Positions 5,162 to 56,002 of a stretch of DNA of 64,000 bases are shown piece by piece (within the stretch, counting starts at the first letter, position 1; the number at the start of each line of letters is the position of its first letter). This DNA is from Anaerolineae bacterium. GTDB taxonomy: Bacteria > Chloroflexota > Anaerolineae > B4-G1 > DUEL01. Where the stretch lies: positions 1 to 64,000 of the forward strand of contig JBDOIF010000118.1 of assembly GCA_041082215.1 (NCBI GenBank). The letters are read 5' to 3'. The notes beneath the pieces are model-generated. The model was given only the letters and a program-made list of their open reading frames with translations, did no database searches and was not told the origin of the DNA. The position numbers and the translations under genes are program-made.

Positions 5162-5376
5162 GGGCGTATTACGGATTAATTTTTCAAAGTTCATCAATTT
5201 CGGGGCGAGCGATCCTCTCGCTCGCCCGTGGATCGCGAATCCCCCGAATGGCCCGAATACAGCGAACAGGAAGGATACCTGCTCCACTCGCGGTATTCGT
5301 TTCCATTCGCGCCATTCCTGTTTCCCCAGGTCCGGCCCGGGCCAGGGACATCCCGCCCCCAAACTGAAACATGCCT
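5162..5376. mobile_element. MITE family 1, copy A (left TIR interrupted by a ~23 bp insert)
   Basis: Homologous to 14390-14581 and 24468-24658; flanked by direct repeat CCGTCCCTG (5153-5161, 5377-5385). Confidence 0.85.
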
Positions 5377-5507
5377 CCGTCCCTGCCTGTGGCACATAGA
5401 GATAAGGCGTGGTAGAATACGGACACATCCGCTATCGCAAAAACTGCGCCCTGAACTGAACCTGAAAACAAACCATGCATCCTCTACGCCTCTGCGGTGA
5501 GGTATCA

Positions 5508-6323
5508 GTGAATACCGACGAGATTCTATCCCAGATCGTCTCAATCGCCCACGAAGCGGGAGCGCTCATCCGCCAGGCATTTCCCCGCACCACCCTGCCC
5601 CACATCGGCCTCAAGGGGGCGGTCAACCCGGTCACCGAGACCGATACGGCTGTGGAGCAGTTGATCCTGGCCCGGCTGCGGACCGCCTTTCCTCAGCATC
5701 GTATCCTGGCCGAGGAGGGAGGCGGGGACGCCTGGCAGGAGCCTGGCCCCCCAATCTGGCTGGTGGACCCGCTGGATGGGACCAACAACTTCGCCCACGG
5801 CTTTCCTCACGTCGGCGTCTCCGCAGCCCTGGTGGCGGACGGGGAGCCGCTGGTAGGGGTGATCTACGACCCGCTGCGAGGGGAGACCTTCGCCGCAGCG
5901 GCCGGAAGGGGAGCGACGCTGAACGGAGAGCCGATCCACGTCACAGGAACAGCACGGCTGGCAGACAGTTTCCTCGCCACCGGCTTCCCCTATGACCGGC
6001 GCACCGCGGCGGACAACAACACGGCGCGACTGGACCATTTCCTGCGCCGTTCGATGGGAGTGCGGCGGGCGGGGGCGGCCTGCCTGGACCTGGCCTATGT
6101 GGCCTGCGGCCGGTTCGACGGCTTCTGGGAGATCCGGCTCAAACCGTGGGATGTGGCGGCGGGGGTGCTGCTGGTGCGGGAGGCGGGAGGACGGGCCACC
6201 GACTTTGCCGGAACCCCCAACTGCCTCTCAGGGGAGGAGATCGTCGCCTCCAACGGCCTCATCCACGAAGAGATGCTGCGGGTCATCCGGGAAGGAGCCG
6301 CTGCCCCCCTGCCCGACGTCTGA
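5508..6323 (+). CDS. suhB: Inositol monophosphatase family protein
   Basis: WLVDPLDGTNNF and WDVAAG motifs; GTG start after GAGG. Confidence 0.92.
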   Translation: MNTDEILSQIVSIAHEAGALIRQAFPRTTLPHIGLKGAVNPVTETDTAVEQLILARLRTAFPQHRILAEEGGGDAWQEPGPPIWLVDPLDGTNNFAHGFPHVGVSAALVADGEPLVGVIYDPLRGETFAAAAGRGATLNGEPIHVTGTARLADSFLATGFPYDRRTAADNNTARLDHFLRRSMGVRRAGAACLDLAYVACGRFDGFWEIRLKPWDVAAGVLLVREAGGRATDFAGTPNCLSGEEIVASNGLIHEEMLRVIREGAAAPLPDV

Positions 6324-6353
6324 CATTTGACGTTTTGACGCCTGACACCCCCA

Positions 6354-7571
6354 TCACTTCTCCATCGCCGCCAGCGCCTCGTAGGCGGGACGAAGATGGG
6401 TCTCCGGCCAGCCCGGCTCGGTGATCGCCCACCAGTACTGCTCATCCTCAGGGGTCCAGAAGGGGTTGGCGATGGAAAGGACGAACATCGGCCCGATCCA
6501 CGGCTGCCAGTGTTCCCGGGCGTAACGGAAGGCCCGCACCAGGTACTCTGCCTTCTGCTCCTCGGTGACAGCGAACCAGGCGTAATCACTGTTGTGGGGA
6601 TCGCTGGTCCACCCCATCTCCAGTATGGCCACCTGCTTGTCGCCGTCGCCGTAGCGGAGCATGATCTCCCGCATATCCTCGACGTGGCGGAAGCAGAAGA
6701 ACCGCTGCCCCCCATAATAGGGGTCGGAGGCTGCCTCTTCGGGGGAAAGCTCCGGCGGGGCGCGGAACCCGGCAGCGTGGACCCCCAGCAGGTCGAAATA
6801 GGGGGATGCGCCGGCCTCGTACATCCCGACCACGTAGTCGGTATCCGGCAGCGCTTCCGGCAGGCCGGTGCCAGTAGGGGCCATGCCGGCAGAGATGACC
6901 AGGGCGCTGGGGTCCGCCTGCTTGATGGCAACATAGCAGGCCCGCAGCAGCTCCACATAGCCGGCCGGGTTCGGCGGATTGCCCCCCCACTCCCGGGCAA
7001 GGTTGGGTTCGTTCCACACCTGGTAGGCCCGCACCCGTCCCCTATAACGGGCCGCCACTGCCCCGCAGAAGTGAGCGAAGTCGTCCGGCCGGATCGGAAA
7101 GGTGGGGTCATCGGAGGGGGAAACCCAATCCGGAAGCGGGAGGCCGTCCAGCCGGAAGAGGACGTTCAGGTTATGCGCCTCCGCCCGCTCGACGATAAAG
7201 TCGGCCTTGGGCCAGTCGAAACGGTCCCTCTGAATCCCCTCCAGGTCCCGCCAGGCGATCTTCTGCTTGACCCAGGTGAACCCCGCCTGCTCGATGAGGG
7301 AGAGGTCCCGCTCGGCGATGTTCCAATCCCACCAGAGGAAAGCCTGCATGCCGTAGTCAGGGGAAGGGAGGCGGGAGCGGGGCCAGGAAGTAGGGGTAGG
7401 AGGGAGCGGAGTGGAGGTAGCCGTCGGCGTGGGCAGGAGCCCCAATTCAGGGCCCTGCCACGCCAGGAGCATAAGCAGCCCCCCTACGACGAAGAGGCCG
7501 ACGATCCAGCCCCAGCGACGACCGCCCCCTCCTTCCCCCATGGCTCCACTGGTCATTGACCCATCGGTCAT
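6354..7571 (-). CDS. Membrane-anchored clan GH-A glycoside hydrolase (GH5/GH39-like)
   Basis: N-terminal TM, Pro/Thr linker, VWNEPN acid/base and ILEMGW nucleophile motifs. Confidence 0.85.
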   Translation of the reverse strand: MTDGSMTSGAMGEGGGGRRWGWIVGLFVVGGLLMLLAWQGPELGLLPTPTATSTPLPPTPTSWPRSRLPSPDYGMQAFLWWDWNIAERDLSLIEQAGFTWVKQKIAWRDLEGIQRDRFDWPKADFIVERAEAHNLNVLFRLDGLPLPDWVSPSDDPTFPIRPDDFAHFCGAVAARYRGRVRAYQVWNEPNLAREWGGNPPNPAGYVELLRACYVAIKQADPSALVISAGMAPTGTGLPEALPDTDYVVGMYEAGASPYFDLLGVHAAGFRAPPELSPEEAASDPYYGGQRFFCFRHVEDMREIMLRYGDGDKQVAILEMGWTSDPHNSDYAWFAVTEEQKAEYLVRAFRYAREHWQPWIGPMFVLSIANPFWTPEDEQYWWAITEPGWPETHLRPAYEALAAMEK

Positions 7572-8872
7572 TGCCCCTGGGGTTTCTCCATTGCTCTGAC
7601 CGCCTCGAAGGCCGGGCGGGCGGCGCCGTTAAAGTCCAGAATGCTGTAGGGAGCGTTGGGGTCGGTGGGGCCGATGCCGTCCTTTTGGGCGAAGTCCAGG
7701 TTCCAGAGGAAGGCCAGCCGCACGAAGCCCCACTCCCGCATCAACCGGTAGGCATACACGATGTAATCTGCCTGCTCCTGTTCGGTGTTATCCTGGGCAA
7801 ATCCGAAGCCCGTCGGGTAGGTCTCCCACCCTTCGGAGGAGGCCCAGCCGAACTCGGTCACGCAGAGGGGCTTGTTACTCCCCGCCGCTGCTACCTGGCT
7901 GTGATACCATTCCAGCGTGCTGCGGAAGGACCAACTGATGTCCGGATTATCCCAGAAGCCGCGGAAGACGGCCGTATCGTCTTCATAGGGCTCGTCGTAG
8001 GCCACGTCGGGGGGGATATTGTAGCCGTTGTGGTGGACCCCCACACAGTCGCAGTAGTTGAGGAGTCCGGCAGCGACCAGCGCCTGGAAGTAATCCCGGT
8101 CGTTCATGTAAATGATGCGGTTGGGATTGGCCGGGTCGGTGGCAGTAGCCCCCACGGGGGATAGCGCCCCACTGATGACGAGAATGTTCGGATCCCGCGC
8201 CTTGATCGTCTGATAAGCCAGCCGGAGCATCTCCACGTACCGGGTCGGGTTCACCCCTTCGGCGTTATCCCACTCCCGGTCCAGGTTCTCCTCGTTCCAG
8301 ACCTCGATGGCGTGGATACGGCCCCGGTACCGGTCCACCAGCCGGCCCAGGAAGTCGGCGAAGACGGCGAGATCGTCGGGGGGGGCTCCCTCCGGGTTGG
8401 CGTCCCTGTAGGAGCGGGCCCAATCGGGCGCGTCCACCACGCTGAGCATCACCCGCAGGCCGCGCCGGTTGGCGGCGTCTATCAGCGCATCGTATCCGCT
8501 CCAGTCCATCTCCCCCGGCGCCCGCTCGAAGTGGGCCCAGCGGACCTGCTGCTTGACCCATCCCAGACCGAGGCTCTCCACCTGCCCCATCGTATACTCG
8601 GGGTCGCCGACGACGCCGTGGGTCTGGATACCGTAGCCAAAGGTCTCCACCGGCTGAACGTTCGGCGGTTGAGTCGCTAGCGTTTCAATGGGAAGCGGGG
8701 TCAACCCGCCCGTTTCCGTAGCCGTGGGGGTGACCTCTTCTGCCGAAGGGGTGAGGAAGCCCCACCAGAGGCAGAGGAGGCCCAGCAGCAGCGTCAGCAC
8801 CCACACACCGACGGCGACAGCCAGCCGTCGCCCGCTGAGTTGATCGGGGTCCAAAAAGAATCCTCCAGACAC
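7568..8872 (-). CDS. Membrane-anchored clan GH-A glycoside hydrolase (GH5/GH39-like)
   Basis: GTG start at 8872 after GGGAGG; TM, Thr/Pro linker, VWNEEN and VTEFGW motifs. Confidence 0.85.
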   Translation of the reverse strand: MSGGFFLDPDQLSGRRLAVAVGVWVLTLLLGLLCLWWGFLTPSAEEVTPTATETGGLTPLPIETLATQPPNVQPVETFGYGIQTHGVVGDPEYTMGQVESLGLGWVKQQVRWAHFERAPGEMDWSGYDALIDAANRRGLRVMLSVVDAPDWARSYRDANPEGAPPDDLAVFADFLGRLVDRYRGRIHAIEVWNEENLDREWDNAEGVNPTRYVEMLRLAYQTIKARDPNILVISGALSPVGATATDPANPNRIIYMNDRDYFQALVAAGLLNYCDCVGVHHNGYNIPPDVAYDEPYEDDTAVFRGFWDNPDISWSFRSTLEWYHSQVAAAGSNKPLCVTEFGWASSEGWETYPTGFGFAQDNTEQEQADYIVYAYRLMREWGFVRLAFLWNLDFAQKDGIGPTDPNAPYSILDFNGAARPAFEAVRAMEKPQGQ

Positions 8873-8939
8873 GTTGACCTCCCTATCCAGCAGGGGCGCA
8901 GGAGGGGCAACACCCCACCAGCGCGCCGTCCAGCATCCG

Positions 8940-11900: not shown

Positions 11901-12077
11901 GGGGGGCAGGAGCAGGGCGACGACGACGAACACGGCGATGAGGCCATAGACCCAGCCGCCGCCCGACAGCCCTTCACGCAGTCGCTCCCGGACGGGGCCG
12001 AAGGTCGCCGCCAGCCGTTGACGGAAAGGCGATCGGGGCTTTTCCACCCCTTCGATCCCGGTGTTGCCTTCTTCCAT
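8940..12077 (-). CDS. Multidomain membrane-anchored protein: GH18-like domain, NBR1-Ig-like domain and GH-A hydrolase
   Basis: YAGVALDY...LGGVVV (GH18-like), DVTVPDGT...FVKTWRLRNNGTCDW (NBR1/FW Ig-like), IEVWNEPN and YTEMGY. Confidence 0.8.
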   Translation of the reverse strand: MEEGNTGIEGVEKPRSPFRQRLAATFGPVRERLREGLSGGGWVYGLIAVFVVVALLLPPISLPQRLGLVGYTRLNADNPSVSHPDGITVRVDPEAASSLRVRLDSVPMVDFLEGVAGAGLRTAVEALPQVLQVKSPYYQIHVRSRSDGPATLEVVIPNDAEPWETLDLYTWTGTSWEWVGGTLDVGREMLVARVDHLPSSVVVMQTVPVVPSVGAVADQPPQGEAAELLTEALLPDLYLGTDGMLLGNAPVVGTGSPEPVLLIRNWQADQPLNEALLADVLGVPQVQEAHIGNIVAAAGDYAGVALDYRGVLPEQREAFSTFVAALAEALHQQGVRLEVVVPSPVRTEAGWDTGGYDWAALGVAADALLFPLPDDPTAYVEGGETASLLTWAVGQVNRYRLRALVPSLSLDKGPDGVRYVGLEEALAPFGQIQPPGETSLEPGQEVVFTLAGQVTSIVREEAAGTYAINYKAGDGADHTVWLGTPSLLARRLDWVLRYHLGGVVVSDLTAEGNMPGMLDAVRGYRAAADLTQPTELEVTWSVEGPGASAEQQVVSLSQPDFRWVAPSEPGEYTVSAAVAGLSRGSVRLTVAQPTPTPTPGPTAGTAGIGGGGAAACLSAAFEADVTVPDGTHFDNGESFVKTWRLRNNGTCDWPEGTVLAFVSGSKMGGPDSVQVGAVKAGQSVEISVNLVAPAESGNFTGMWVLKAGGAEIPGGKVTVVIRAGNVAAAPPAPAPGARGSFELGGHVRDLNFPYANLMHYAGMNWAKVQVHYAENAAGIIQAAHARGFKIQLSALGSPSMVTQAGFEQNFASWVASLAASGADAIEVWNEPNIDREWQIGRIDPAAYTRLLCTAYSAIKAANPNTLVISAAPAPTGYFGGCSPNGCDDKPWMEGMYNAGAAQCMDYIGAHHNSGATSPSARSGHPADAGGHHHSWYFLPQTELYYNIFRGTRQLFYTEMGYASQEGVPTFSDMFAWARENDNSEQAAWLAEAVQLSINTGMVRCIIVWNIDFVRYGYDPQDGYAIVRPGGSCPACDALHAVLGTR

Positions 12078-12258
12078 AATGCGACCTCCACCTCAGATTG
12101 GGGATCACATCCCACCAGCAACAAAATACGGCCCGAAGGCCGCCTGAAAGCGCCTTCCTCACCCGGAGAACACAGGGGACGGGAAAGCGGAGGGTATTCT
12201 GTACATTCAATGGGGTCTATTTTAGCACAAGGGGAAAGATATGGCAACCCGGAGCTGC

Positions 12259-12407
12259 TGAGGTTCGGACGCGAGTTCGGACACAGGCGCTCATCGGCCG
12301 CTTATGACCCCACCCCATCCCCCTCACCCCACCCCCTGGCCCCCTCCCGGTAGGGGGAAGGGTGAGGGATGCTCTCCCAGCCTGTCCGAACTCTTGTCCG
12401 AACCCCA
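12259..12407. mobile_element. MITE family 3 (TG...CA ends)
   Basis: TIRs TGAGGTTCGGACGCGAGTTCGGACA and reverse complement TGGGGTTCGGACAAGAGTTCGGACA; flanking direct repeat CGGAGCTG at 12250-12257 and 12408-12415. Confidence 0.7.
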
Positions 12408-12517
12408 CGGAGCTGGAATTGCCTCAGCTCCTGGTGTCTTCGTGCCTTTGTGGTGATTTTCTAAACACCCTCAGCAGGGAGGGGAAGGGGGCAGAGAGGT
12501 AGGGGCGAGGTCGTAGC

Positions 12518-14330: not shown

Positions 14331-14389
14331 GCTCCCCTCTGAGGATTCTACCACCCTCAAGCTCCCTGCACAATCGCCCTCGAGCCGCC

Positions 14390-14581
14390 GGGCGTACTTC
14401 AATTTCGGGGCGAGTGGCCCTCTCCCGCGCCAGTGGATTGCGAATCCCACGAATGGCCCGAATACCGCGAACAGGAGGGATCCCTGCCCCATTCGCGATA
14501 TTCGTTCCCATTCGCGTCATTCGTGTTTGCCCAGGTCCGGCCCGGGCCAGGGACATCTCGCCCCCAAACTGAAATACACCT
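14390..14581. mobile_element. MITE family 1, copy B
   Basis: ~25 bp TIRs GGGCGTACTTCAATTTCGGGGCGAG / CTCGCCCCCAAACTGAAATACACCT; flanks GAGCCGCC / GAGCCGCT. Confidence 0.85.
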
Positions 14582-14625: not shown

Positions 14626-14633
14626 CAGGGGCG

Positions 14634-15128
14634 ATGGACTATCTATGGACCCCCTGGCGAATGGCGTATCTTCGAGGCGACGAACCCTTGCCGGAAGAGT
14701 GCCTGTTCTGTCTCAAACCCCGGTCGGAGGATGCGGAGGCCCATATCCTCCATCGGGGTCGGCTTTGTTATGTTATCCTCAATCGGTTCCCCTACAATAA
14801 CGGCCACCTGATGGTGGTCCCCTACGCCCATGCCGCCAGCCTTGAGGACCTGGACCCCGCGACGCTTTCCGAAATGATGGAGCTGACGCAGCTCAGCCTG
14901 CGGGTGCTCCGGTCGGCCTACAGCCCCCAGGGTTTCAACATAGGGCTGAACATCGGCGGTGTGGCCGGAGCAGGGGTGGCCGACCACGTCCATCTCCACG
15001 TCGTCCCCCGGTGGGGAGGGGACACCAATTATCTGACCGTTGTAGGGGAAACGCGGACGATCCCGGAGTGGCTGGACCAGACCTATCAGCGGCTGCGGCC
15101 GCTATTTGAGCAACTAAGCAACCAGTAA
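14634..15128 (+). CDS. HIT family hydrolase (Ap4A phosphorylase-like)
   Basis: LWTPWRMAY start, CLFC, NRFPYNNGHLM, HVHLHVVPRW histidine triad. Confidence 0.9.
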   Translation: MDYLWTPWRMAYLRGDEPLPEECLFCLKPRSEDAEAHILHRGRLCYVILNRFPYNNGHLMVVPYAHAASLEDLDPATLSEMMELTQLSLRVLRSAYSPQGFNIGLNIGGVAGAGVADHVHLHVVPRWGGDTNYLTVVGETRTIPEWLDQTYQRLRPLFEQLSNQ

Positions 15129-15164
15129 CCAGCAACCAGCAACCATTCACAGGAGGAGATACTT

Positions 15165-17264: not shown

Positions 17265-17424
17265 ACTTAAGTTTAAGGAAGCCCTCACCCATCCCCGTGC
17301 CCGCCGCAGGCAGGCGGGGGTGGGGTAAGGGCCGGACAGATTGACAAACTGCAAGAGTTTGTCTTACAGAACAGCGGCGGTTGGTCGCCACATCTCACAC
17401 TGAAGACCAGCTTATGGAGGCAGC

Positions 17425-24467: not shown

Positions 24468-24658
24468 GGGCGTATTTCAATTTCGGGGCGAGTGGGCCTC
24501 TCGCTCGCCGGTGGATCGCAAATCCCGCCAACGGCCCGAATACAGCGAACAGCAGGGATACCTGCTCCATTCGCAGTATTCGTTTCCATTCGCGCCATTC
24601 GTGTTTCCCAGGTCCGGCCCGGGCGGGGGACATCTCGCCCCCAAATTGAAATACACCT
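24468..24658. mobile_element. MITE family 1, copy C
   Basis: TIRs GGGCGTATTTCAATTTCGGGGCGAG / CTCGCCCCCAAATTGAAATACACCT; perfect 8 bp direct repeat GAGCAGAC (24460-24467, 24659-24666). Confidence 0.9.
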
Positions 24659-41128: not shown

Positions 41129-42468
41129 ACCACAACCTTGAATCGCAGACCTCGGACCCACAGGAGTTGCGCCAGCGGATTCGGGAGCTGGTGGCCGAAT
41201 ACTACCGCGCGGTCCATGCCTCCGTCCCCTTCACACCCGGTCGGACCCGCGTCCAATACGCCGGCCGCGTCTACGACGAGCGGGAGCTGATCGCTATTGT
41301 GGAAGCCGCCCTCGACTTCTGGCTCAGCGCCGGCCCCCGGGCCGAGGCCTTCGAGGACGGTCTGGCCCGCTTCCTGGGCCTCCATCACGCGCTGGCGGTC
41401 AACTCCGGCTCCTCGGCCAACCTGGTCGCCATCGCCGCCCTCCGTTCCCCCCGTCTGGCACGCCCCCTCCAGCCCGGCGACGAGGTCATCACCGCGGCCG
41501 CTGGCTTCCCCACCACCGTCGCCCCCATCCTCCAGAACGGGCTGGTGCCGGTGTTCGTGGATTGCGAGCTGGGGACCTACAACCTGGACCCCAACCAGTT
41601 GGAGGCCGCCCTGTCGGAGCGGACCCGGGCCATCTTCCTGGCCCATACGCTGGGCAACCCGGTCCATATGGAGCCGGTGATGGCCTTTGCCCGCCAGCAC
41701 GGGCTGTACGTTATCGAGGATGCCTGTGACGCGCTCGGCTCCCTCTACGATGGACGAATGGTGGGCACCTTCGGGGACCTGGCCACTCTGAGTTTCTATC
41801 CCGCCCACCACATCACCACCGGCGAGGGAGGGGCCGTCGTCACCGACGACCCGACACTGGCCCGCATCGTCCAGAGCATCCGGGATTGGGGCCGGGATTG
41901 CCATTGCCGTCACAACAGCCCTCCTACCGGCGCCTGCGGCCGCCGCTTTGAATGGAGGATTCCCGGCCTGGATGAACCCTACGACCACCGCTACCTCTTC
42001 GTGGAGGTCGGCTATAACCTGAAGATGACCGACCTTCAGGCCGCCGTCGGGCTGGCCCAACTGGAAAAGCTGCCCTCTTTCATCGCCGCCCGCCGCCGCA
42101 ACTTCGAGCGGCTGTACGACGGGCTGAAACCCTACGAGGAGTTCCTGCTCCTCCCCACCTGGAGCCAGCGGGCCGAGCCTTCCTGGTTTGCCCTCCCCAT
42201 TACCGTCCGTCCCACCGCCCCCTTCTCCCGCCGCGACCTCACCACCTTCCTGGAGGCCCACAACATCGAGACCCGGCTCCTCTTCGCCGGCAACATCGTC
42301 CGCCAGCCCGGCTATCGGGACATCCCCCACCGCGCCGTCGGCGACCTCCCCAACTCCGACCAGGTCCTCCGCTCTTCCTTCTTCATCGGCGTTTACCCCG
42401 GACTGGACGAGGAACGTATCGCCTACGTGCTGGGGGTTTTTGAGGATTTCTTCAGACGTGAAGCGTGA
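41125..42468 (+). CDS. rfbH: CDP-4-keto-6-deoxyglucose 3-dehydratase (E1, RfbH/DdhC)
   Basis: NSGSSAN, HTLGNP, EDACDALG, SFYPAHHITTGEGG (His replacing the PLP Lys), RDWGRDCHC. Confidence 0.92.
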   Translation: MNHNLESQTSDPQELRQRIRELVAEYYRAVHASVPFTPGRTRVQYAGRVYDERELIAIVEAALDFWLSAGPRAEAFEDGLARFLGLHHALAVNSGSSANLVAIAALRSPRLARPLQPGDEVITAAAGFPTTVAPILQNGLVPVFVDCELGTYNLDPNQLEAALSERTRAIFLAHTLGNPVHMEPVMAFARQHGLYVIEDACDALGSLYDGRMVGTFGDLATLSFYPAHHITTGEGGAVVTDDPTLARIVQSIRDWGRDCHCRHNSPPTGACGRRFEWRIPGLDEPYDHRYLFVEVGYNLKMTDLQAAVGLAQLEKLPSFIAARRRNFERLYDGLKPYEEFLLLPTWSQRAEPSWFALPITVRPTAPFSRRDLTTFLEAHNIETRLLFAGNIVRQPGYRDIPHRAVGDLPNSDQVLRSSFFIGVYPGLDEERIAYVLGVFEDFFRREA

Positions 42469-42534
42469 AGCGTGAAACGTCAAACGTCAAACGTCAAACG
42501 TCAAACGTCAAACGTCAAACGTCAAACGTCAAAC
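42457..42534. repeat. Heptamer tandem repeat (CGTGAAG)2 followed by (AAACGTC)8
   Basis: Eight perfect AAACGTC copies at 42475-42530. Confidence 0.95.
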
Positions 42535-42549
42535 ACTGGACACAGGACC

Positions 42550-43269: not shown

Positions 43270-44267
43270 ACATCGTTGTGACCGGTTCCATCGCCTACGA
43301 CTATCTGATGCGGTTTCCAGGCCGCTTTGCAGAGCACTTTCTGCCCGACCAGCTCCATCGCGTCTCCCTCAGCTTTCTGGTAGACGAGATGCGACGGCAG
43401 TGGGGAGGATGCGCCGCCAATATCGCCTACAACCTGGCCCTCCTGGGAGAACGGCCCCGCCTGATGGGCACCGTGGGCCAGGACTTTGGCGAATACCGGG
43501 AGCGGCTGGAACGGTGCGGGGTGGATACCTCCCTCACCCGCGAGGAACCAGACCTGTTCACCGCTTCCTTTTTCGCCAACACCGATATGGATGGCAATCA
43601 AATCTGCAGCTTTTATACCGGGGCGATGGCCCGGGCGCGGGAGCTTTCGTTCCACGGACTGGACGCGGGGGAGATCGAGCTGGTGGTCATTTCTCCCAAC
43701 GACCCGGAGGCGATGGTGAGGTATGCCGCCGAGTGCCGGGAGCTGGGCATTCCCTATCTCTACGATCCCAGCCAGCAGATCGTCCGTCTCTCCGGCGAAG
43801 CGCTGCGGGAGGGGCTGGAGGGATGCGATCTGCTGGTGGTCAACGAGTACGAGTTTGAGCTTTTGCAGAAAAAGACAGGACTCAGCGCCGAGGCAGTCCA
43901 ATCCGCTCCCGCCCGCGCCTGTGTGGTGACCCGGAGTGAAGAGGGGTCCCGCATCTGGGCAGCGGGCGTTGTTTACGACATCCCTGCCGTCCCTCCGGAG
44001 CGGGCAGCCGACCCCACCGGCGTCGGCGATGCCTTCCGGGCCGGCCTGATCAAGGGGCTGGCGCTGGGCCTCCCCTGGGAGCTGGCGGGGCGGATGGGGA
44101 GCCTGGCCGCCACCTACGCCCTGGAGGCCCCTGGTCCTCAAAGCCACCGCTACTCGCTCAGAGAGTTCGTCGCCCGCTTCCGCCGCCACTTCGACGACCG
44201 GGGAGCGCTGGCGGCTCTGGCAGAGGAAGAACAGACCCGATCACCCAGTCACCCAATCACCCAATAA
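43266..44267 (+). CDS. PfkB family kinase, actinobacterial-type adenosine kinase
   Basis: VTGSIAYDYLMRFPGRF N-terminus, FYTGAM, DPSQQ, DPTGVGDAFRAG; adjacent to ahcY. Confidence 0.85.
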   Translation: MNIVVTGSIAYDYLMRFPGRFAEHFLPDQLHRVSLSFLVDEMRRQWGGCAANIAYNLALLGERPRLMGTVGQDFGEYRERLERCGVDTSLTREEPDLFTASFFANTDMDGNQICSFYTGAMARARELSFHGLDAGEIELVVISPNDPEAMVRYAAECRELGIPYLYDPSQQIVRLSGEALREGLEGCDLLVVNEYEFELLQKKTGLSAEAVQSAPARACVVTRSEEGSRIWAAGVVYDIPAVPPERAADPTGVGDAFRAGLIKGLALGLPWELAGRMGSLAATYALEAPGPQSHRYSLREFVARFRRHFDDRGALAALAEEEQTRSPSHPITQ

Positions 44268-44275
44268 CCCGGTGA

Positions 44276-45565
<1,290 letters not shown>

Positions 45566-48749: not shown

Positions 48750-48832
48750 GAATCCTGCTCCTCTATACAATAAGGAATACGCAATACGGAATACGGGCCA
48801 CTGGCTACGTATTGCGTATTGCGTACTCCGTA

Positions 48833-49930: not shown

Positions 49931-52233
49931 CCCCGTTTCCCTCGCTCCCGCGTCCAGATCAGCCCGACCACCAGCCCTGCCAGCGCAGCCAGGCTCACTC
50001 CACCCCCGATCCGCACCAGGAGAGGGCGATAGACCATCTCCACCACGTGCTCTCCCGCTTCCAGATAAACGGCGCGGAAGGCGTGGTTGGCCCGCAGGAG
50101 GGGCGCAGGCTCCCCGTCCACCGCCGCCTCCCAACCGGGATACCAGGTGTCAGCCAGGACCAGGTAGCCAGGCCGGTCCAGCACGGCGCGTATTGTAACG
50201 CGGTTGAGGCCATCCTGCAAGACGATGGAGTGCTCGTTGCTGGTTGCCTGTTGCTGGTCGCTGGTTGCTCGTTGCTGGTGACCGATGACGTATGACGTAT
50301 GACGTATGACGTATGACACAGCTGACTGCCGGGACCCGGTTAGGAGGACCTCGGCAGCAGGGTCGAAGGAGGGGGAAGTGAGGGCAGCCAGGACCTGATC
50401 GGGCGGGAGGACACGGGCGGCAGGGACGACCCAGGCGCGGCCCAGGGGGGCAGAAAGGGGGGCCACATAGACCCCCGATTCAGCGGTGGCGGTGACCAGG
50501 TGGGTGACTCCCATCACGCGGGCCAGGTCCGGCGCATCGTCCGCGGCGCGGATCAGGTCGTCGTACCAGCCCACCCGCAGCGGCTCGAAGTTGTTGGCCG
50601 ACGCCACCCCGTCCAGCATCCCCAGGTTGGGGAGCAGCGTTTCCCGGAGCGGCCGCCAGAAGGAGAGGTCGCGCGGGCCGAAGGTATCAAAGCGGAAGAA
50701 GCGGCCAAACTTCAGCTCGTATCCCGGCTCAGGCTTGTCCCCAGCGGGCCAGAAAATCCGCCCGACGGCAGGGTCGGCTGCCAGCGCTGCCCCCACGTCG
50801 CTTCGGCCCTCATAGAAGGCCCGGTCCACCGACGGCACCAGTCCCCAACCGAAGGCCGCCAGGTCAACCAGCACCACTCCCACCACCATCCACCCCCACC
50901 CGCAGGGGCGACCCCTGTGGTCACCCCACAGCGCTAGCCCGCCCGCTACTGCCAGGATCAGCCCTGCCCGCGCCGTCGCCGGGCCGAAGCTGGCGGGGAT
51001 GCCGGGGAGCCGGGCAGCGACCAGCCCCCCCAGCGCAGCCGCTACCCCCACCACCACACCCCACGCCCCACGCCGTCGGGCCGCCCGCCCCCATCCCCAG
51101 CTCTGGGCGCCGATCCCCGCCAGCGCCGTCAACGCCACCGTGGTCACCGCCAGCCATCGGGCAGGGGCCTGGAACCAGTCGAAGGTGGGGACGTGCTCGA
51201 AGAGCCACAGAAAGGCCGGATTGTTCCGCCCCATCGCCAGGAACAGCGAGCAGCCGGCCACCAGCAGCCAGAAGAGCGTCATTTCCCGCCAGGGATGTCT
51301 GCGCCGCAGACCCGCAATCGTCTCCAGGGCCAGCAGGAGCGGCAGGAGGCCGATGTAGGCTGCGTCCTCCCAGTAGTTACCATAGCCCCAGTAATCGCCC
51401 CAGGCCGGATTGCCGAAGAGGTCCGGCGCGATGAGGGTAAGCAGTCGCCAGGGCCAGAGGGAGTAGGTCAATCCCAGTTCCCGGTCCACCCCGGTCGCTC
51501 GCTGGGAAAAGCGGAGAAGCTCGGCGGTGGGCAGGAGCTGCACAGCGGCCAGGGCCAGGCCAACGACGAACGCGCCGCCGGCGAGGAGAAGCGCCCGCCC
51601 GTTTGCCCGTCGCGGAGGAAGACGGAAGAACAGGTAGGCTGTCAGGAGCAGAAGGCCGTAGAAAGCGGTCTGCGCATGGCCTGCCAGCAATCCCATCCCC
51701 AGCGCGCCGCCCAGCCAGAGCCCGTCCCGCAGCCGCCGGGTCTGGCTCAACCGCTCCGCCCGCCAGAGCCAGATGGGGAGCCAGGGAAAGGTGACGGCGA
51801 TGCTGGGGAAGAGGCCGGCCCGGGCCGCCAGGAAGCCGCTTCCCTCCAGGGCAAGCCCCGCCAGCAGCGCCGGGAAGCGGCTCAGTCCTGTCGTCCTTGC
51901 CCAGCCGTACATCCCCATCCCGGCCAGCGCCAGATGGAGCGCCACCGTCCATCCCAGAGCTACCTCTACCGGGAGGAGCAGGGCCAGGCCGTAGAGGGGA
52001 TAGAAAGCGCCGGTCTGATAGTTGGCCGCCAGGGGCGCGCCGCACCCCAGGAGGGGGTTCCAGAGCGGCAGGTGGCCCGCCCGCCACATCTCGGCCGCCA
52101 TCCGCTGCCAGGGAACGAACTGGAGGGCCGGCGTGCCCCAGAAGAGCGCCTCCCCGGCAAGCAGGGAGCGTCGAAGAAGGAGCAGAGGGAGGACAATCAG
52201 CACAACCAGATCACCCAATACCCCGGTCACCAT
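49927..52233 (-). CDS. YfhO family (GT-C) membrane protein
   Basis: PLWNPLLGCGAP, FYP, GHAQ, C-terminal LVLADTWYPGWEAAVDG..RANHAFRAV. Confidence 0.85.
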   Translation of the reverse strand: MVTGVLGDLVVLIVLPLLLLRRSLLAGEALFWGTPALQFVPWQRMAAEMWRAGHLPLWNPLLGCGAPLAANYQTGAFYPLYGLALLLPVEVALGWTVALHLALAGMGMYGWARTTGLSRFPALLAGLALEGSGFLAARAGLFPSIAVTFPWLPIWLWRAERLSQTRRLRDGLWLGGALGMGLLAGHAQTAFYGLLLLTAYLFFRLPPRRANGRALLLAGGAFVVGLALAAVQLLPTAELLRFSQRATGVDRELGLTYSLWPWRLLTLIAPDLFGNPAWGDYWGYGNYWEDAAYIGLLPLLLALETIAGLRRRHPWREMTLFWLLVAGCSLFLAMGRNNPAFLWLFEHVPTFDWFQAPARWLAVTTVALTALAGIGAQSWGWGRAARRRGAWGVVVGVAAALGGLVAARLPGIPASFGPATARAGLILAVAGGLALWGDHRGRPCGWGWMVVGVVLVDLAAFGWGLVPSVDRAFYEGRSDVGAALAADPAVGRIFWPAGDKPEPGYELKFGRFFRFDTFGPRDLSFWRPLRETLLPNLGMLDGVASANNFEPLRVGWYDDLIRAADDAPDLARVMGVTHLVTATAESGVYVAPLSAPLGRAWVVPAARVLPPDQVLAALTSPSFDPAAEVLLTGSRQSAVSYVIRHTSYVIGHQQRATSDQQQATSNEHSIVLQDGLNRVTIRAVLDRPGYLVLADTWYPGWEAAVDGEPAPLLRANHAFRAVYLEAGEHVVEMVYRPLLVRIGGGVSLAALAGLVVGLIWTRERGKRG

Positions 52234-53825
52234 ATCACCTCAAACACCCCATACCCCCCCGACCAGTACACCCGCCGGAGGTAGGGGACGGTGAAGGGGT
52301 CGAACCCCCCCAGCGCCCGTTCCGCCGGCCCCCAGAAGAGCCAGTCCACCCCGTACTCCGCAAGCAACGCCCGTCGCCACTCGTCATCGGTGGAGGGGTC
52401 GAAGAAACGGCTTACCAGCTCCCGCTTCTCATCGAAGCGGACCGTCTCCGGGCCGTGGCCGACAAAAGCCCGCGCCCCCACCCGGGCGGGGAGGTAGTTG
52501 CCGGTCTCGTAGGTCGCCAGCACCACATCGTCTGGCCGGACCCGCCCGCTCAGCCAGTCCAGCGCCGCCACTTCCCCCGCCTCCCGGAAGACCGGAGCGG
52601 GGCGGGGCAGGAGCGCCAGAGAGTTTCCCACCACAAGAAGGAGGCTGACAGGCAGGAGCATGGACAGCATCCCCACCATCAGCCCTCTCCTCAGGCCCTC
52701 AGAGCGGGGAAGCTCGACCGCCGCCCGGGCTGCCAGGAGGCTTAAGGGGACCTGCACCCCTTCCACCAGCCGCCGCTGGAGGTTGAAGGGGAGGTAAACC
52801 AGGAGCGGAACCACGCTAACCCAGGCCAGAAGCGCCCACATCGGCCCCCTCTCCCGCCACACCCGGGGGGCAATCGGGGCAGCCAGCAGCAACGGCAGGC
52901 CAAAGGCGAGCAGGTAGTGGGCCGGGTGCGGGGAAAGGATGCGGTTCTGGGCCGACCAGGCCGCGTAGACCGGGTCGGTGGTGAAGACCCAGGCGCTGTA
53001 GAGGACGACGGGGGCGGATAGGAAGCCGACCAGGGCCGTCGGTCCCAGCCCCCGCCAGGGGAGACGGCGCTGGCGCACGGCCAGCGCCACCCCTATTCCG
53101 CCCGCCGCCGCCCACGCCACCAGGACGTAGAAAGGGACGATCATACCCATCCCCAGCCAGGCCAGGCCGGCCAGGAGGGCAGGCCGCGAGAAGCGAGGTA
53201 CATCCGTTTCCACTTCCCAGGCTTGCAGGATGAAGAGCAGGCCGAGCAGCAGAAGCGTCCGCGCCAGAGCGATGTGGGGGAAGCCGTAGAGGACCAGGAA
53301 GGTGAACCCCTCCGGCAGAATGAGGTCGAGGGGGAGGCTGCCCAGCCAGTCGGGCCGGCCCAGCGCCATCGGCAGCCAGCCCAGCCCCCCACCGAAAGCG
53401 ACCAGCAGGAAGGCCAGCCGCCGCACCCGCAGGTCGGCGGTGAAGGCAGTCAGGAAGCGGTAAACGGTGAGCAAAAGCCCCATCCCGAAAAGCAACCGCG
53501 CGCCGTGATAGGTCCAGACCAGCCTGGCCGTCAGGTCGGCCCCGGGCAGGAGAGCCGCCAGTTTCCCCAGAAGGAGATGGAAGAGGAAGAAAAGGGTCCC
53601 CGGATGGGGTTCGGGAGTGTATGCGATATGGAAGAGCCAGGCCCCCTCCGCCCCCTCCCGCATCTTGGTCAGGTAGGAGTAGCCGTCCTCGACGGCGTAG
53701 ACGAAGCCGCCGAACCGTCGCTCCGGAGTCTGGAGGGCCAGCCCCAGGAGATAGGGGGCCGAGGCCAGCGCCAGCGCCGCCGCGCCAGTCAGGAGGACCC
53801 ACTTCCACTCACGCTCTGTCATCAT
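52227..53825 (-). CDS. Multi-TM GT-C-like membrane protein
   Basis: EDGYSYLTKMREG, YTPEPH, C-terminal GNYLPA..FVGHGPET; paralog of 53972-55483. Confidence 0.65.
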   Translation of the reverse strand: MMTEREWKWVLLTGAAALALASAPYLLGLALQTPERRFGGFVYAVEDGYSYLTKMREGAEGAWLFHIAYTPEPHPGTLFFLFHLLLGKLAALLPGADLTARLVWTYHGARLLFGMGLLLTVYRFLTAFTADLRVRRLAFLLVAFGGGLGWLPMALGRPDWLGSLPLDLILPEGFTFLVLYGFPHIALARTLLLLGLLFILQAWEVETDVPRFSRPALLAGLAWLGMGMIVPFYVLVAWAAAGGIGVALAVRQRRLPWRGLGPTALVGFLSAPVVLYSAWVFTTDPVYAAWSAQNRILSPHPAHYLLAFGLPLLLAAPIAPRVWRERGPMWALLAWVSVVPLLVYLPFNLQRRLVEGVQVPLSLLAARAAVELPRSEGLRRGLMVGMLSMLLPVSLLLVVGNSLALLPRPAPVFREAGEVAALDWLSGRVRPDDVVLATYETGNYLPARVGARAFVGHGPETVRFDEKRELVSRFFDPSTDDEWRRALLAEYGVDWLFWGPAERALGGFDPFTVPYLRRVYWSGGYGVFEVIW

Positions 53826-53841
53826 CGGCCCATGACAAGAT

Positions 53842-53954
53842 CACGAATCCAACGAATAAGGCAAATAACGCAAATTCCGGTTGGACACAGGCTCGAACAA
53901 AGCCGGGGTCGCCCGGAAACATTCGTGAGATTCGGCCTGTTTGCGCCATTCGCG
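53842..53954. repeat. 9-mer periodic inverted repeat (CGAAT x4 ... ATTCG x4), stand-alone version of the MITE-1 interior
   Basis: CGAAT/CAAAT at 53844, 53853, 53862, 53871; ATTCG/GTTTG at 53921, 53930, 53939, 53948. Confidence 0.75.
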
Positions 53955-53971
53955 GAGAATTCCGCGCATTG

Positions 53972-55483
53972 TTAACGACGGTAAATAGCTGCATTCCCGG
54001 CCTCAAAGAGGGGTTCGCCCGCTGGAGGCGGGCCTAACGCCTGCTCCCGCGGCCCGTAGAACAGGTACTCCACCCCCATCTCCTCCAGCCAGGTCGGGTC
54101 GCGCTCACCCCGCCAGAACCGCTCTACCTGCGCCCGCCGCGTCTCCGCCTCCACCGTCTCAAAGGGATGGCCATAGACCACCCGCTGCCCGGCCCAGGCG
54201 GGTATGAAGATGCCCATCTCCGGCGCGCAGAGGACCACCTCCTCGTGGGAAACATGTTCCCGCAGCCAGTCCAGCACCGCCCACTCCCCATCGCTCAGAT
54301 AGAGGAGGGGGTGGCCCCCCACCGCTGCACCGACCCCCAGGGCAAGGAGAAAAAGGGGGGTCAGGACACAGAAGCCCACCAGGGCGACCTGCAGGGAAGC
54401 CCTCCACTGGCCCCTCCGCAGCCTCCACCAGCCCATCCCGGCCAGCAATCCCACCGGCACGCCCAGCCCCAGGCTGAGGCGACGGGCCAGGGTCAGAGGA
54501 AGCGCCAGCCCCACAGCGGTCGCCAGCGCCCAGCCCAGAAGCAGCCCGTCCTCCCCCCGTCGCCGCCGGAGGGCCACTGCCACCCCCACAGCCGCCAGAG
54601 GGGCCAGCAGCCCGAAGGCCAGAAGCCACTCCAGAAGGGAAGGAGAGGGGGTCGCGTTCTGCGCGTTCCAGGCCGCAAGGACCGGGTCGGCATGGATCGC
54701 CCAGAGGGTGTAGAGGGGGTATGGAAGGGAGAACGCCGCCGCCAGCATCATCCAGGCTATGAAACGGCAGGGAACCGACCTCTGGAGCACAGCCCGGACC
54801 CCAGCCGCTCCCGCCAGCCCTCCCAGCAGGGGGACCAGGCCGAAGGGCTGGATGGCCCCCAGTGCTACCGCTGCTGCCGTCATCGCCGCGCCGGCGCAGG
54901 AGGAGCGATCCGCCCGCAGCCCCCAGTGGGCCGCCCAGACCAGCAGCGCCAAGGCGGTGGGGAAATGAGCGTTGGTCAGCAGGGCAAGGAAAGGAAACGC
55001 CTCCGCCACCCACAGGTCGGGGGTTTCCCGCCCCAGTGGAGCGGCCAGCCACCCCAGGCCGGCCCCCATCGCCGCCAGGAGGAAGAGCAGACGGCGTTCC
55101 TTCAGCCCGTCGCTCAGGTGAGCCGCCAGCCGGTAGAGGCCGAAGAGGAGCGCCAGCCCTCCCACCGTCCGCACCGCGTGGTAGACCACCAGGAGCGGCA
55201 GGCGGGTCCAGCGAGCCAGGTGCCCCAGAAACAGGTAGAAAAGGTAGATCGGCGCCCCCTTTTGAGGCTCTGACGTGTAGGTAAGGCGGAAGAGCCAGGA
55301 ACCCTCAGCTCCCAGGCGCATCTTCGCGATGTACGTATAACCGTCCAGCGGATTGTAGACCAGGCCGGTGAAGTGGACGCCCGGGGAGGCGGCCGCCCAG
55401 CCTGCCAGATAGGGCAGCCAGGCAAGCGCAAGCAGGCCCAAAGCGACCCCCGTCACCCACCGCCACTCCCGCCGTTCCACCAT
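53972..55483 (-). CDS. Multi-TM GT-C-like membrane protein
   Basis: LDGYTYIAKMRLG, YTSEPQ, C-terminal GIFIPA..VYGHPFET; paralog of 52227-53825. Confidence 0.65.
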   Translation of the reverse strand: MVERREWRWVTGVALGLLALAWLPYLAGWAAASPGVHFTGLVYNPLDGYTYIAKMRLGAEGSWLFRLTYTSEPQKGAPIYLFYLFLGHLARWTRLPLLVVYHAVRTVGGLALLFGLYRLAAHLSDGLKERRLLFLLAAMGAGLGWLAAPLGRETPDLWVAEAFPFLALLTNAHFPTALALLVWAAHWGLRADRSSCAGAAMTAAAVALGAIQPFGLVPLLGGLAGAAGVRAVLQRSVPCRFIAWMMLAAAFSLPYPLYTLWAIHADPVLAAWNAQNATPSPSLLEWLLAFGLLAPLAAVGVAVALRRRRGEDGLLLGWALATAVGLALPLTLARRLSLGLGVPVGLLAGMGWWRLRRGQWRASLQVALVGFCVLTPLFLLALGVGAAVGGHPLLYLSDGEWAVLDWLREHVSHEEVVLCAPEMGIFIPAWAGQRVVYGHPFETVEAETRRAQVERFWRGERDPTWLEEMGVEYLFYGPREQALGPPPAGEPLFEAGNAAIYRR

Positions 55484-55540
55484 CCTCCCTTTTCCACCTC
55501 CTGCCTCCTGCCTCCCTGCCTATTTTAGCACAGAGACCAC

Positions 55541-55569
55541 TTGCCAAAAAGCCCAGGCTCTGCTATAAT
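55541..55569 (+). promoter_or_regulatory. Sigma70 promoter of tRNA-Pro
   Basis: TTGCCA-17 bp-TATAAT with extended TG. Confidence 0.8.
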
Positions 55570-55577
55570 CCCATTCG

Positions 55578-55652
55578 CGGGGCGTAGCGCAGTCCGGCTA
55601 GCGCGCTACAATGGGGTTGTAGAAGTCGACGGTTCAAATCCGTCCGCCCCGA
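55578..55652 (+). tRNA. tRNA-Pro(GGG), CCA not encoded (CCT follows)
   Basis: Acceptor CGGGGCG/CGCCCCG, anticodon stem CTACA/TGTAG with loop ATGGGGT, GGTTCAAATCC T-arm. Confidence 0.95.
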
Positions 55653-55664
55653 CCTGATACCGCC

Positions 55665-55702
55665 AAAGTTGAGACGTCGCTGACGCGACGCCTCAACTTT
55701 TT
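55665..55702 (+). terminator. Intrinsic terminator after the tRNA
   Basis: AAAGTTGAGACGTCGC-TGAC-GCGACGCCTCAACTTTTT. Confidence 0.8.
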
Positions 55703-55715
55703 GTAGGACAAGCTT

Positions 55716-55916
55716 ATGAGTTCTAACAAATTAATCCGGCCATAATCCTGCGCGGCTCTTGTGGAAAAAGCGTGGCGCAGGCCGCCAGGCCTGCAGGGAC
55801 AGGCTAACAGCCTGCGCTACGCCCGGCCATTCTTGTGGGTATAGTGCTCCCCGACCACGCAAATTCCCGGAGAACCTCCTGCACCATTGTGCACGGATCA
55901 ATTTTTCAAAGTTCAT
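55716..55916. mobile_element. MITE family 2, inserted in a REP-like palindrome
   Basis: 23 bp imperfect TIRs (17/23) ATGAGTTCTAACAAATTAATCCG / CGGATCAATTTTTCAAAGTTCAT; flanked by the two arms AGGACAAGCT and AGCTTGTCCT. Confidence 0.65.
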
Positions 55917-56002
55917 CAGCTTGTCCTGCGCTTGCCCTACAGAAGCCCTTGCCCTAAAGGGGAGTTCCGCCTATAATCTCCTTAAACCGCCAGGGAGGAA
56001 CG

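Follow-up and report, generated by a model that had tools for sequence, protein, structure and literature searches.

Hairpin repeats nested in three unrelated MITE families of a hot-spring Chloroflexota genome

Introduction

Why do short hairpin repeats recur inside mobile elements that are themselves unrelated? The question is raised by a 64,000-nucleotide stretch of DNA, here called the window, from a Thermoflexales-like Chloroflexota of a hot spring, whose genome is represented by a bin of 174 contigs. Three unrelated MITE families (M1, M2 and M3) occupy gene-free spaces of this genome; they are non-coding, and their interiors hold other hairpin repeats, referred to below as cargo. The original prediction saw the MITEs as shells derived from IS ends, in which independent repeat families land or are captured. 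We find that the mobile DNA is layered, and that each layer is of an already known kind (MITEs, REP/RAYT and REP-targeting IS110).

Results

The shells are multi-copy MITEs

The shells are not single-copy chance inverted repeats: blastn searches against the genome gave 105-160 matches for the M1 copies, 36 for M2 and 81 for M3, and each family has a candidate parent. The parents fall into three transposase families (ISKra4-type DDE, IS110-type and IS4-like DDE), in agreement with an origin from unrelated IS ends; as had also been predicted, none of the mobilising enzymes lies in the window. All MITE and repeat copies of the window are intergenic (Table 1). Single-strand folding was compared with that of shuffled sequences, giving z scores of -5.7 for M1, -5.0 for M2 and -5.3 for M3, with 0/200 shuffles equally good in each case.

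Table 1 Repeat elements of the window and their immediate context
Feature	Position	Strand	Remarks
M1 copy a	5162..5376		9-bp duplication CCGTCCCTG at 5153-5161 and 5377-5385
M3 copy	12258..12407		TIR GGTTCGGAC..GTTCGGACA; 8-bp duplication CGGAGCTG at 12250-12257 and 12408-12415
Cargo-3 in M3	12308..12369		nested G/C hairpin CCCTCACCCC...GGGTGAGGG
G-rich stretch	12478..12510		half-site, no complementary arm
M1 copy b	14390..14581		between biotin-ligase-like gene and HIT-family gene
Free-standing cargo-3-type hairpin	17282..17331		directly after 3-hydroxyacyl-CoA dehydrogenase gene
M1 copy c	24468..24658		between GT4 glycosyltransferase gene and TPR gene
Degenerate M4 member (CGAAT inverted array)	53838..53954		M4 TIR unrecognisable
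tRNA-Pro(GGG)	55578..55654	+	context; followed by hairpin plus T-run, then REP holding M2
REP-A hairpin, left half GTAGGACAAGCTT	55703..55715		split by M2
M2	55716..55916		~25-nt TIRs (ATGAG...TTCAT); right end matches IS110-family IS on contig C172
Cargo-2 (GTAG-tagged REP doublet) in M2	55772..55820		traced through blast loci and in relatives
REP-A hairpin, right half CAGCTTGTCCTGC	55917..55929		joined with left half, identical to free REP-A copies

M1 and the CGAAT array

Genome-wide, M1 is represented by 76 TIR pairs and 37 unpaired TIR matches. The 9-bp flanks agree at a minimum of 8/9 positions in 36 of the 76 pairs, compared with 0/76 in a shifted control. In window copy a, the left TIR is broken by 23 nt (5171-5193) that copy the right end of M2. 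Matches to the ISKra4-type transposase model NF033572 were found on contigs C82 (208 bits) and C169 (162 bits). On C169, an M1-type tip adjoins the end of the transposase gene, with 14 of the first 15 bases in agreement, and the TIR of the IS on C82 (265-1711) is identical to the M1 TIR at 20/25 positions, both comparisons being read by eye. The M1 TIR tip thus has counterparts in ISKra4-type IS fragments within the source genome, which makes M1 a candidate ISKra4-type MITE and the ISKra4-type IS its candidate parent.

At least five CGAAY/RTTCG units are present in 70 of the 76 M1 pairs. Five short M1 copies, of 104-120 nt, do not represent empty shells: one arm of the hairpin is missing from each. 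The array at 53842-53954 had been taken for free M1 cargo without TIRs, but it is a decayed copy of another element: the interval listed in Table 1 belongs to an 11-copy family and is 74-78% identical to 5-6 copies that have a TIR of their own as well as 9-bp duplications and so identify the family as a fourth MITE, M4. As a single strand, the window copy folds weakly (z -2.05, 6/200 shuffles equally good), and it resembles the M1 core over no more than ~20-40 nt (local alignment z of 2-4.5, and of 3-9 for intact M4 copies). The array was seen only within M1, M4 and decayed copies of these and shows no sign of independent spread; it behaves as a module common to two MITE families, not as a self-spreading repeat. 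Nor did the parent pass it on as a transposase-binding feature, because the ISKra4-type IS copies have no CGAAT array beside their TIRs. M1, M4 and the array were not found in 60 relatives.

M3 surrounds different cargo in different genomes

M3 is present as 13 complete pairs (90-171 nt) among 59 TIR matches in the genome, with 8-bp duplications, and the length of the cargo varies among the complete copies. Cargo-3 hairpins, from which the terminal GTAG tag is absent, occur at 90 loci, 10 of them in complete M3 shells and 22 at most 150 nt from any M3-type TIR. Two free copies had been proposed in the window. The hairpin behind the dehydrogenase gene is indeed a family member (23 blast matches), while the G-rich stretch, with its single arm and four weak blast matches, is not a hairpin.

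Beyond the source genome, the M3 TIR was found at 46 loci in other genome records and at 72 metagenome loci, and together with 8-bp duplications it surrounds different cargo in relatives as well as in MAGs titled as other phyla. Metagenome contigs contain 19 short M3-TIR pairs with at least five unrelated cargo classes (read by eye), as well as nine loci with 1.25-1.29-kb elements bounded by the M3 TIR. Two of these longer elements were translated, and gave an IS4-like DDE protein that scores 72-87 bits with NF033591 (NCBIfam cut-off 152) and 34 bits with PF01609 (cut-off 23). A tblastn search for such a parent in the source genome returned nothing at E 0.01 or better; there, M3 is either orphaned or its parent is missing from the bin.

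M2 occupies the centre of REP hairpins

Copies of M2 in the genome comprise five with both ends, one without the right end and two partial ones. Over its final 40 nt, M2 shares 87.5% identity with the end of one IS110-family element, located on C172, whose ORF scores 132 bits with NF033542 over the C-terminal 249 aa. A paralogue on C59 (~90% over the overlap, read by eye) scores 170 bits (cut-off 140) and has no M2-like left end. The link between M2 and IS110 runs through one end, at ~35/40 bases, the left end of the C172 IS being unassembled. This IS directly adjoins a REP-B half, and the point of contact is that seen in the M2 copies. When flanks were joined, 5/5 complete M2 copies gave a REP-type palindrome with M2 at the exact hairpin centre, and no target duplication was seen at these five. 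The joined flanks on C46 and C83 are free REP-A copies letter for letter; those on C150 are two letters off, those on C141 have one extra T in a REP-C loop, and those on C24 form a REP-E-like palindrome, so that the hosts span four REP subfamilies. In contigs of four public runs the M2 junctions are present and no empty site was seen, although contigs cannot reveal rare variants. The full M2 shell was found in none of 60 relatives, leaving the source genome as the only one among 61 with M2. We infer that M2 is moved by an IS110-family recombinase.

Cargo-2 is more widespread than its shells

The M2 cargo also occurs free-standing, as predicted: it has 29 blast loci, 8 within M2 and 21 outside. 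It lies in the centre of 3-4 M4 copies too, and thus in two different shells of the source genome, and again in a palindromic element of C97, G012 and G017. It was matched in 13/14 genomes of a sister genus, where the M2 shell was not found, and cargo-2-type REPs flank the RAYT of one of these (G015). The source genome has one RAYT (NF047646, 87.5 bits; cut-off 80), on another contig, with GTAG REPs on both sides that form GTAGGGCAACTCC...-type hairpins; the association with RAYT genes, which had been proposed, is therefore present in both genomes. The GTAG-headed palindromes are 20-30 nt long, with tens of copies per family, and some are arranged as doublets or in tandem. They fall into at least six GTAG subfamilies, alongside which the genome has the one intact REP-flanked RAYT.

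All M2 copies have one common cargo junction and the cargo-2-bearing M4 copies have another, and we count each junction as one capture. As copies within one MITE family share one ancestor, an enrichment of cargo in shells would reflect few independent events. Complementarity between the directly flanking sequences did not exceed that of controls, either for cargo-2 (50 loci; mean of 8.3 vs 8.4 of 20) or for cargo-3 (90 loci; 8.0 vs 8.2). These figures give no support to a precise landing at palindrome centres, and no general cargo preference for such centres was found.

Discussion

A layered origin

We consider it probable that the window samples layered non-autonomous mobile DNA, comprising GTAG REPs and then TIR-bounded MITEs trans-mobilised by three transposase families. 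The first layer would consist of palindromic REPs headed by GTAG, together with REP doublets, all of one superfamily and most likely spread by RAYT (HUH/Y1 enzymes acting on single-stranded hairpins). The second would consist of TIR-bounded MITEs mobilised in trans by unrelated enzymes: M1 (9-bp duplications) by an ISKra4-type DDE enzyme, M3 (8-bp duplications) by a DDE enzyme of IS4-like type, and M2 by an IS110-family recombinase that would enter the exact centre of REP hairpins with no duplication. Because MITE movement requires the ends alone, the interior tolerates foreign DNA, and hairpin repeats may have landed or been captured there and afterwards been copied together with the shell. 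Positions 55703-55929 would then hold four nested levels, namely a REP doublet within a palindromic-element remnant, within an IS110-type MITE, within a REP hairpin. The families with their copy numbers, the duplications and insertion points, the IS end matches and the broader distribution of cargo are observed, whereas the pairing of enzymes with elements and the succession of steps are what we infer. The original prediction stands for cargo-2 and cargo-3, which are older or broader than their shells, and is not supported for the CGAAT array as an independent family; the layering that it described is seen, and runs in the reverse direction too, with M2 itself sitting in REP hairpins.

Alternative explanations

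The inner hairpins could instead be original, needed parts of the MITEs, which would, for instance, bring the ends together by single-strand folding or act as binding arrays, with free look-alikes being decayed MITEs. We hold this to be rather unlikely overall. It fits the CGAAT array, considering its presence in most M1 pairs, the short copies that miss one arm without being empty, the M4 identity of the supposedly free copy, and the finding of M1, M4 and array in none of the relatives. G-rich CCCCTCCCC-type hairpins are also present in MITEs of the M3 type from MAGs with Planctomycetes and Chloroflexia in their titles, which could be an old association. However, the ISKra4-type IS copies have no array next to their TIRs, cargo-2 is abundant in the sister genus with no detected M2 shell, flanks a RAYT there and occupies both M2 and M4 shells here, the M3 TIR surrounds unrelated cargo classes elsewhere, and 68/90 cargo-3 loci have no M3-type TIR within 150 nt.

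It is less probable still that the repeats are retained for host use and that nesting reflects crowding into few permissive intergenic sites. REPs have been credited with roles such as terminators, mRNA stabilisers and promoter-proximal elements (PMC3733652), every window copy is intergenic, and M2 with its host REP comes after a tRNA and a hairpin plus T-run. Yet the duplications, the exact insertion at REP centres and the IS end matches show transposition, regardless of any later use of the copies, and an Rfam search of the window and of four IS contigs had the tRNA as its sole match at the gathering score, with no family matching any MITE or repeat.

That the shells are chance inverted repeats or assembly artefacts is conceivable for a 174-contig bin in which many contigs end within repeat arrays or M3-type ends, but is refuted by dozens of copies with differing flanks and target duplications, by M2 junctions that recur in several public runs, and by the M3 TIR loci in other genome records and metagenomes.

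Comparison with known systems

The layered arrangement of REPs and MITEs that we favour has parallels for each of its parts. M1 resembles ISKra4-group IS and MITEs in its 9-bp duplications and in its TIR tip, and differs from the ISKra4-type IS copies in carrying a 4+4-unit CGAAT inverted array, part of which is common to M4. The 1.25-1.29-kb M3-TIR elements resemble the IS4 family in encoding a DDE_Tnp_1 protein, with NF033591 as the nearest model, although they score below its NCBIfam cut-off and no copy was found in the source genome. IS1397 and ISKpn1 (IS3 family) are DDE elements that insert in the loops of enterobacterial REPs and leave short duplications; M2 likewise occupies the apical part of REP hairpins, but has no duplication and an IS110-family end match.

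A closer parallel to M2 is MITEPpu9, related to ISPpu9 (IS110 family) and described as inserted in REPs of Pseudomonas putida KT2440 (PMC12288879). As far as that description goes, both are short, non-coding elements with IS110-family IS end sequences, site-specific in REPs or REP pairs, with the IS enzyme presumed to act in trans. M2 differs in having ~25-nt TIRs of which only the right end is matched to an IS, in carrying a REP doublet instead of an sRNA gene, and in its position at the exact hairpin centre of four REP subfamilies. The same source describes IS110-family enzymes as choosing targets via base pairing with a guide RNA (PMC12288879); the insertion of M2 in four REP subfamilies with differing flanks is not obviously compatible with a single guide RNA.

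GTAG-tagged REPs with RAYT genes are described as REPtrons (Di Nocera et al. 2013, PMC3733652; Bertels and Rainey 2011, PMC3116915). In keeping with those accounts, we see GTAG-headed 20-30-nt palindromes, one RAYT with REPs on both sides, doublets and tandem arrays. Unlike the REPtrons described there, at least six subfamilies stand beside just one intact RAYT with flanking REPs, the palindrome of the REPs includes the tag (GTAG...CTAC), and cargo-2 combines two small hairpins that differ from each other, where a REP doublet would have one REP in two inverted copies. Longer palindromes that enclose REP dimers are described in Anabaena variabilis (GTAG-15) and Halothiobacillus neapolitanus (CGTC-1) (PMC3733652), and this regular enclosure of doublets by long inverted arms recalls cargo-2 in M2, M4 and the palindromic element of C97, G012 and G017. 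The account of these dimers goes no further, and mentions neither target duplications nor a parent IS nor an exchange of shells and cargo (PMC3733652); in contrast, the shells here are MITEs of named IS families.

The shells are multi-copy elements

The window is positions 1-64000 of contig C46 in G000, the genome under study (3.53 Mb in 174 contigs, 65% G+C), and all of the elements discussed from it are intergenic. The original prediction held that hairpin-repeat cargo, which also occurs free-standing, lands in or is captured by IS-end shells; the observation largely stands, and the picture of shell and cargo holds in part. The three MITE shells, M1, M2 and M3, are not chance repeats, as each is present in several copies (76 pairs of M1, 13 of M3 and five complete copies of M2). 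M1 contains a CGAAT array (cargo-1), M2 a GTAG-REP doublet (cargo-2) and M3 a G-rich hairpin (cargo-3), and a fourth MITE family, M4, also has a CGAAT array inside.

MITE copies in the window and interiors of M3-TIR elements found elsewhere
Feature	Position in window	Detail
M1, copy a	5162-5376	repeat search
M1	14390-14581	repeat search
M1	24468-24658	repeat search
M3	12258-12407	8-bp duplication CGGAGCTG
M2	55716-55916	window copy, on contig C46
M3-TIR interior elsewhere		CACAGAGG-periodic hairpin
M3-TIR interior elsewhere		GTAGGGGCGCAG-type REP
M3-TIR interior elsewhere		CCCCTCCCC hairpins
M3-TIR interior elsewhere		CATCCCATGCC-type array
M3-TIR interior elsewhere		core without repeats

M2 splits REP hairpins

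M2 has a TIR of ~25 nt and a length of ~200 nt, below transposase-coding size. The complete copies lie on C46, C83, C24, C150 and C141, while the copy on C160 lacks its right end and those on C101 and C97 are partial. The flanks are inverted rather than direct: each pair is a GTAG REP hairpin cut in two. The hosts belong to subfamilies REP-A (C46, C83, C150 and C160), REP-B (C97 and C101) and REP-C (C141), with a REP-E-like palindrome on C24. Seven left and seven right ends lie at insertion sites, and 13 of them adjoin a REP-type half at its centre; on C101 the right flank is a REP-B half in degenerate form. When the flanks of a complete copy are joined, a REP palindrome results in all five cases. 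For C46 and C83 the joined sequence is the same as free REP-A copies (e.g. GTAGGACAAGCTT joined to CAGCTTGTCCTAC), for C150 it is two letters off, and for C141 there is one extra T in the loop. M2 shows no target duplication, as is expected for an IS110-type element.

Five IS110-family matches were found in G000. The transposase gene on C172 has ~300 nt after it. This stretch ends in 40 nt with 87.5% identity to the M2 right end, and a REP-B half comes directly next. The left end of this IS lies beyond the contig end, and its paralogue on C59 has no M2-like left end. A second, unrelated IS110-family element, on C106, has an end against a REP-A-like half. Because of the REP-half flanks and the right-end match on C172, M2 is best read, from one matched end, as related to an IS110-family IS that targets REPs, without being autonomous. 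A single guide RNA does not fit easily with four target subfamilies; on a rather doubtful reading, the REP apex would be recognised by shape or by several guides, not as one fixed target. With one element and four REP subfamilies, M2 is well suited to the study of how the RNA-guided recombinases of the IS110 family choose targets. In M1 copy a, the left TIR contains 23 nt copied from the M2 right end (5171-5193); apart from the IS on C172, no other solitary M2 end was found.

M1, M4 and the CGAAT array

The M1 TIR is 24-25 nt long, and a fuzzy search of G000 gave 189 matches, forming 76 pairs and leaving 37 unpaired. Pair length is 190-199 nt in 56 of the 76, and the typical ~190 nt is below transposase-coding size. 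The 9-bp flanks are identical at eight or nine positions in 36 pairs (15 perfect), whereas a control with a 12-nt shift gave none among 76; the 35 pairs with a flank match below 7/9 may reflect imprecise end calls. Copy a has the perfect duplication CCGTCCCTG. At least five CGAAY/RTTCG units are found in the proper arms in 70 of the 76 pairs. Five short copies (104-120 nt) are without one hairpin arm; they are no empty shells.

In G000 the ISKra4-type model NF033572 has four matches, among them one on C82 (208 bits) and one on C169 (162 bits). By reading, an M1-type tip adjoins the transposase gene end on C169 (14/15 bases identical), and a TIR related to that of M1 (20/25 identical) bounds the IS at C82:265-1711. 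With a TIR tip common to IS that encode ISKra4-family transposases, M1 qualifies as an ISKra4-type MITE. A search of 60 relatives did not find M1. At C82:265-3113, two different ISKra4-type IS copies stand 9 nt apart, without matching duplications at either.

M4 has a TIR of ~19 nt and 9-bp duplications on C26, C29 and C5; a full-length IS with M4-type ends was not found. Cargo-2 sits at the centre of the M4 copies on C7, C62 and C80, and in part at C156. The CGAAT array is confined to M1, M4 and decayed M4 copies, including 53838-53954, so the array at 53842-53954, which had been taken for a free copy without TIRs, is instead a decayed M4. M1 and M4 have no more of the array in common than its outer 20-40 nt. 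Other tandem or inverted arrays with 7-8-nt units, e.g. GAATACG/CGTATTC, were seen at 48771-48832, 42452-42548, 44235-44277 and 15120-15145 of the window.

M3 and its IS4-like relatives

M3 has a TIR of 22-26 nt, with 59 matches in G000 and 13 complete pairs of 90-171 nt, below transposase-coding size; 8-bp duplications flank the window copy and others. The cargo arrays cause breaks in the assembly, so that many unpaired ends lie no more than ~160 nt from the end of a contig. Among copies the shell is constant, and the G/C-rich hairpin inside it comes in different lengths and with different inner modules. As predicted, this hairpin is also free-standing: of 90 loci, which include a few chance matches in coding DNA, 10 are inside complete M3 shells and 22 are within 150 nt of an M3-type TIR. 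Base composition predicts 27 occurrences of CCCTCACCCC or its complement, and 165 were counted.

The exact M3 TIR was found at 46 loci in other genome records and 72 metagenome loci, where it bounds MITEs with 8-bp duplications and interiors quite unlike one another (Table), including 19 short pairs listed. At nine metagenome loci it bounds elements of 1.25-1.29 kb. Two of these, when translated, gave a DDE protein with IS4-family models nearest, scoring below the NCBIfam cut-off and, for one of the two, above the Pfam cut-off. A gene for this protein had no match in G000 by tblastn. On a rather doubtful reading, an IS4-like TIR shell seen in MAGs titled with several phyla would pick up any local hairpin repeat, and could take REP-like repeats from genome to genome with no need of an enzyme of their own.

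Several candidate parents were rejected. The sole long TIR pair in G000 that might have been an autonomous partner of M1, M2 or M3 is two neighbouring M1 copies. In the same genome, Transposase_mut and DDE_Tnp_ISL3 gave no match, the rve matches are weak and on contigs without MITE ends, and the sole DDE_Tnp_1 match, an IS5-family fragment of 1 kb on C166, has no M1, M2 or M3 end by reading. Among other genome records, an apparent 1.6-kb TIR pair (L068) consists of two MITEs with a gene of the lactate/malate dehydrogenase family between them, and a 1.9-kb pair (L082) considered as an M3 parent proved to be an M3-type MITE into which an IS110-family element has inserted. In this last locus (G062:C2:88800-91700, ~499-2394, from a Chloroflexia-titled MAG), the IS110-family element of ~1.6 kb lies in the M3-type cargo hairpin. 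In the relative G027, 27 contig ends have an M3-type TIR and 69 identical nt, with an open frame running into them; these probably mark an IS present in many copies, the body of which is absent from the assembly. An exact-pattern scan of metagenome contigs did not find this putative IS.

REP cargo, RAYT genes and nesting

G000 contains 218 GTAG hairpins, 95 of them 20-29 nt long, and the four commonest GTAG-headed 11-mers occur 43-56 times. Cargo-2 is a doublet bounded by GTAG...CTAC. It was found at 29 loci by blastn-short, eight within M2 and 21 outside, and at 50 by a looser regex. The full M2 shell is confined to G000 among 61 genomes, whereas the cargo-2 part has matches in 13 of 14 sister-genus genomes, with up to 92 per genome among the matches listed, in tandem arrays. 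Cargo-2 is more widespread than its shell.

The suggested link of REPs to RAYT (REP-associated tyrosine transposase) genes is borne out in two genomes. The sole intact RAYT of G000, on C135, is a 214-aa ORF (NF047646, 87.5 bits against a cut-off of 80) whose translation reads with the HUH motif NNHVHLL and the tyrosine motif ESYDHIV. REP hairpins lie directly up- and downstream of it, of the GTAGGGCAAC... subfamily, differing from cargo-2. In G015, a relative's genome, the RAYT is flanked by a cargo-2-type repeat. Two further RAYT-like (Y1/HUH) frames, at C22:3-389 and at C95:139572-140207 with C141:26233-26745, have in-frame REPs between the HUH and tyrosine motifs. One holds a single GTAGGGGCGCAG-type REP, and the other a 27-nt REP array that is read as VDDRQVAPA repeats and breaks the assembly. 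A C-terminal RAYT/IS200-like remnant at C78:97312-97503 stands directly upstream of a long open frame, with no flanking REPs seen.

In G012, G017 and C97 of G000, cargo-2 is enclosed by a palindromic element, to which ~55 nt of the M2 interior next to the cargo are similar; four nested levels are therefore seen at 55703-55929. The C97 element has no other copy in G000 by blastn-short. Flank complementarity of the cargo loci showed no excess over controls. As copies of a MITE family share ancestry, the high cargo density in shells corresponds to few independent events, and we estimate ~8-10 independent combinations of shell and cargo over all genomes examined.

Public metagenomes and assembly breaks

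The region is present in public hot-spring metagenome runs and is covered by contigs of four of them, with breaks inside M2 and the repeat arrays. The joints listed from these contigs include none across M2, and the long-range ones, with short sides of 20-23 nt, are probably repeat artefacts. No empty sites were found in contigs of the four runs, in which rare empty sites would be invisible. The array at 44220-44298 shows small insertions and deletions between runs. Contig-end clustering places the ends of G000 contigs in hairpin arrays, not IS bodies, and such repeats account for many contig breaks in Anaerolineae bins. Loci in other records with one of the G000 repeats come from MAGs titled Anaerolineae, Thermoflexales and Chloroflexia. 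At gathering score, the sole Rfam match in the window and the four IS110 contigs was a tRNA.

Nesting and known systems

The individual parts are ordinary, and their nesting, as documented here, is a new variation on known kinds. It gives a worked example of intergenic 'mosaic' repeats built by nesting of elements that need four enzymes, not by one mechanism. We put forward as rather doubtful the wider proposal that recursive hairpin nesting in this lineage comes from two joint properties, namely the targeting of REP apices of multiple subfamilies by an IS110-type element and its MITE, and an IS4-like shell that serves as vehicle.

In the literature searched, nothing printed on the nested arrangement was found beyond section 7 of PMC3733652. 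That paper has an aside on REP dimers inside long palindromes, which would here become a defined case with named parent families. A REPIN comprises two inverted copies of one REP with a short spacer, making one long hairpin; cargo-2 is bounded by GTAG...CTAC and consists of two different small hairpins. Read from its one matched end, M2 resembles MITEPpu9, a short element with the ends of an IS110-family IS that inserts in REPs (PMC12288879).
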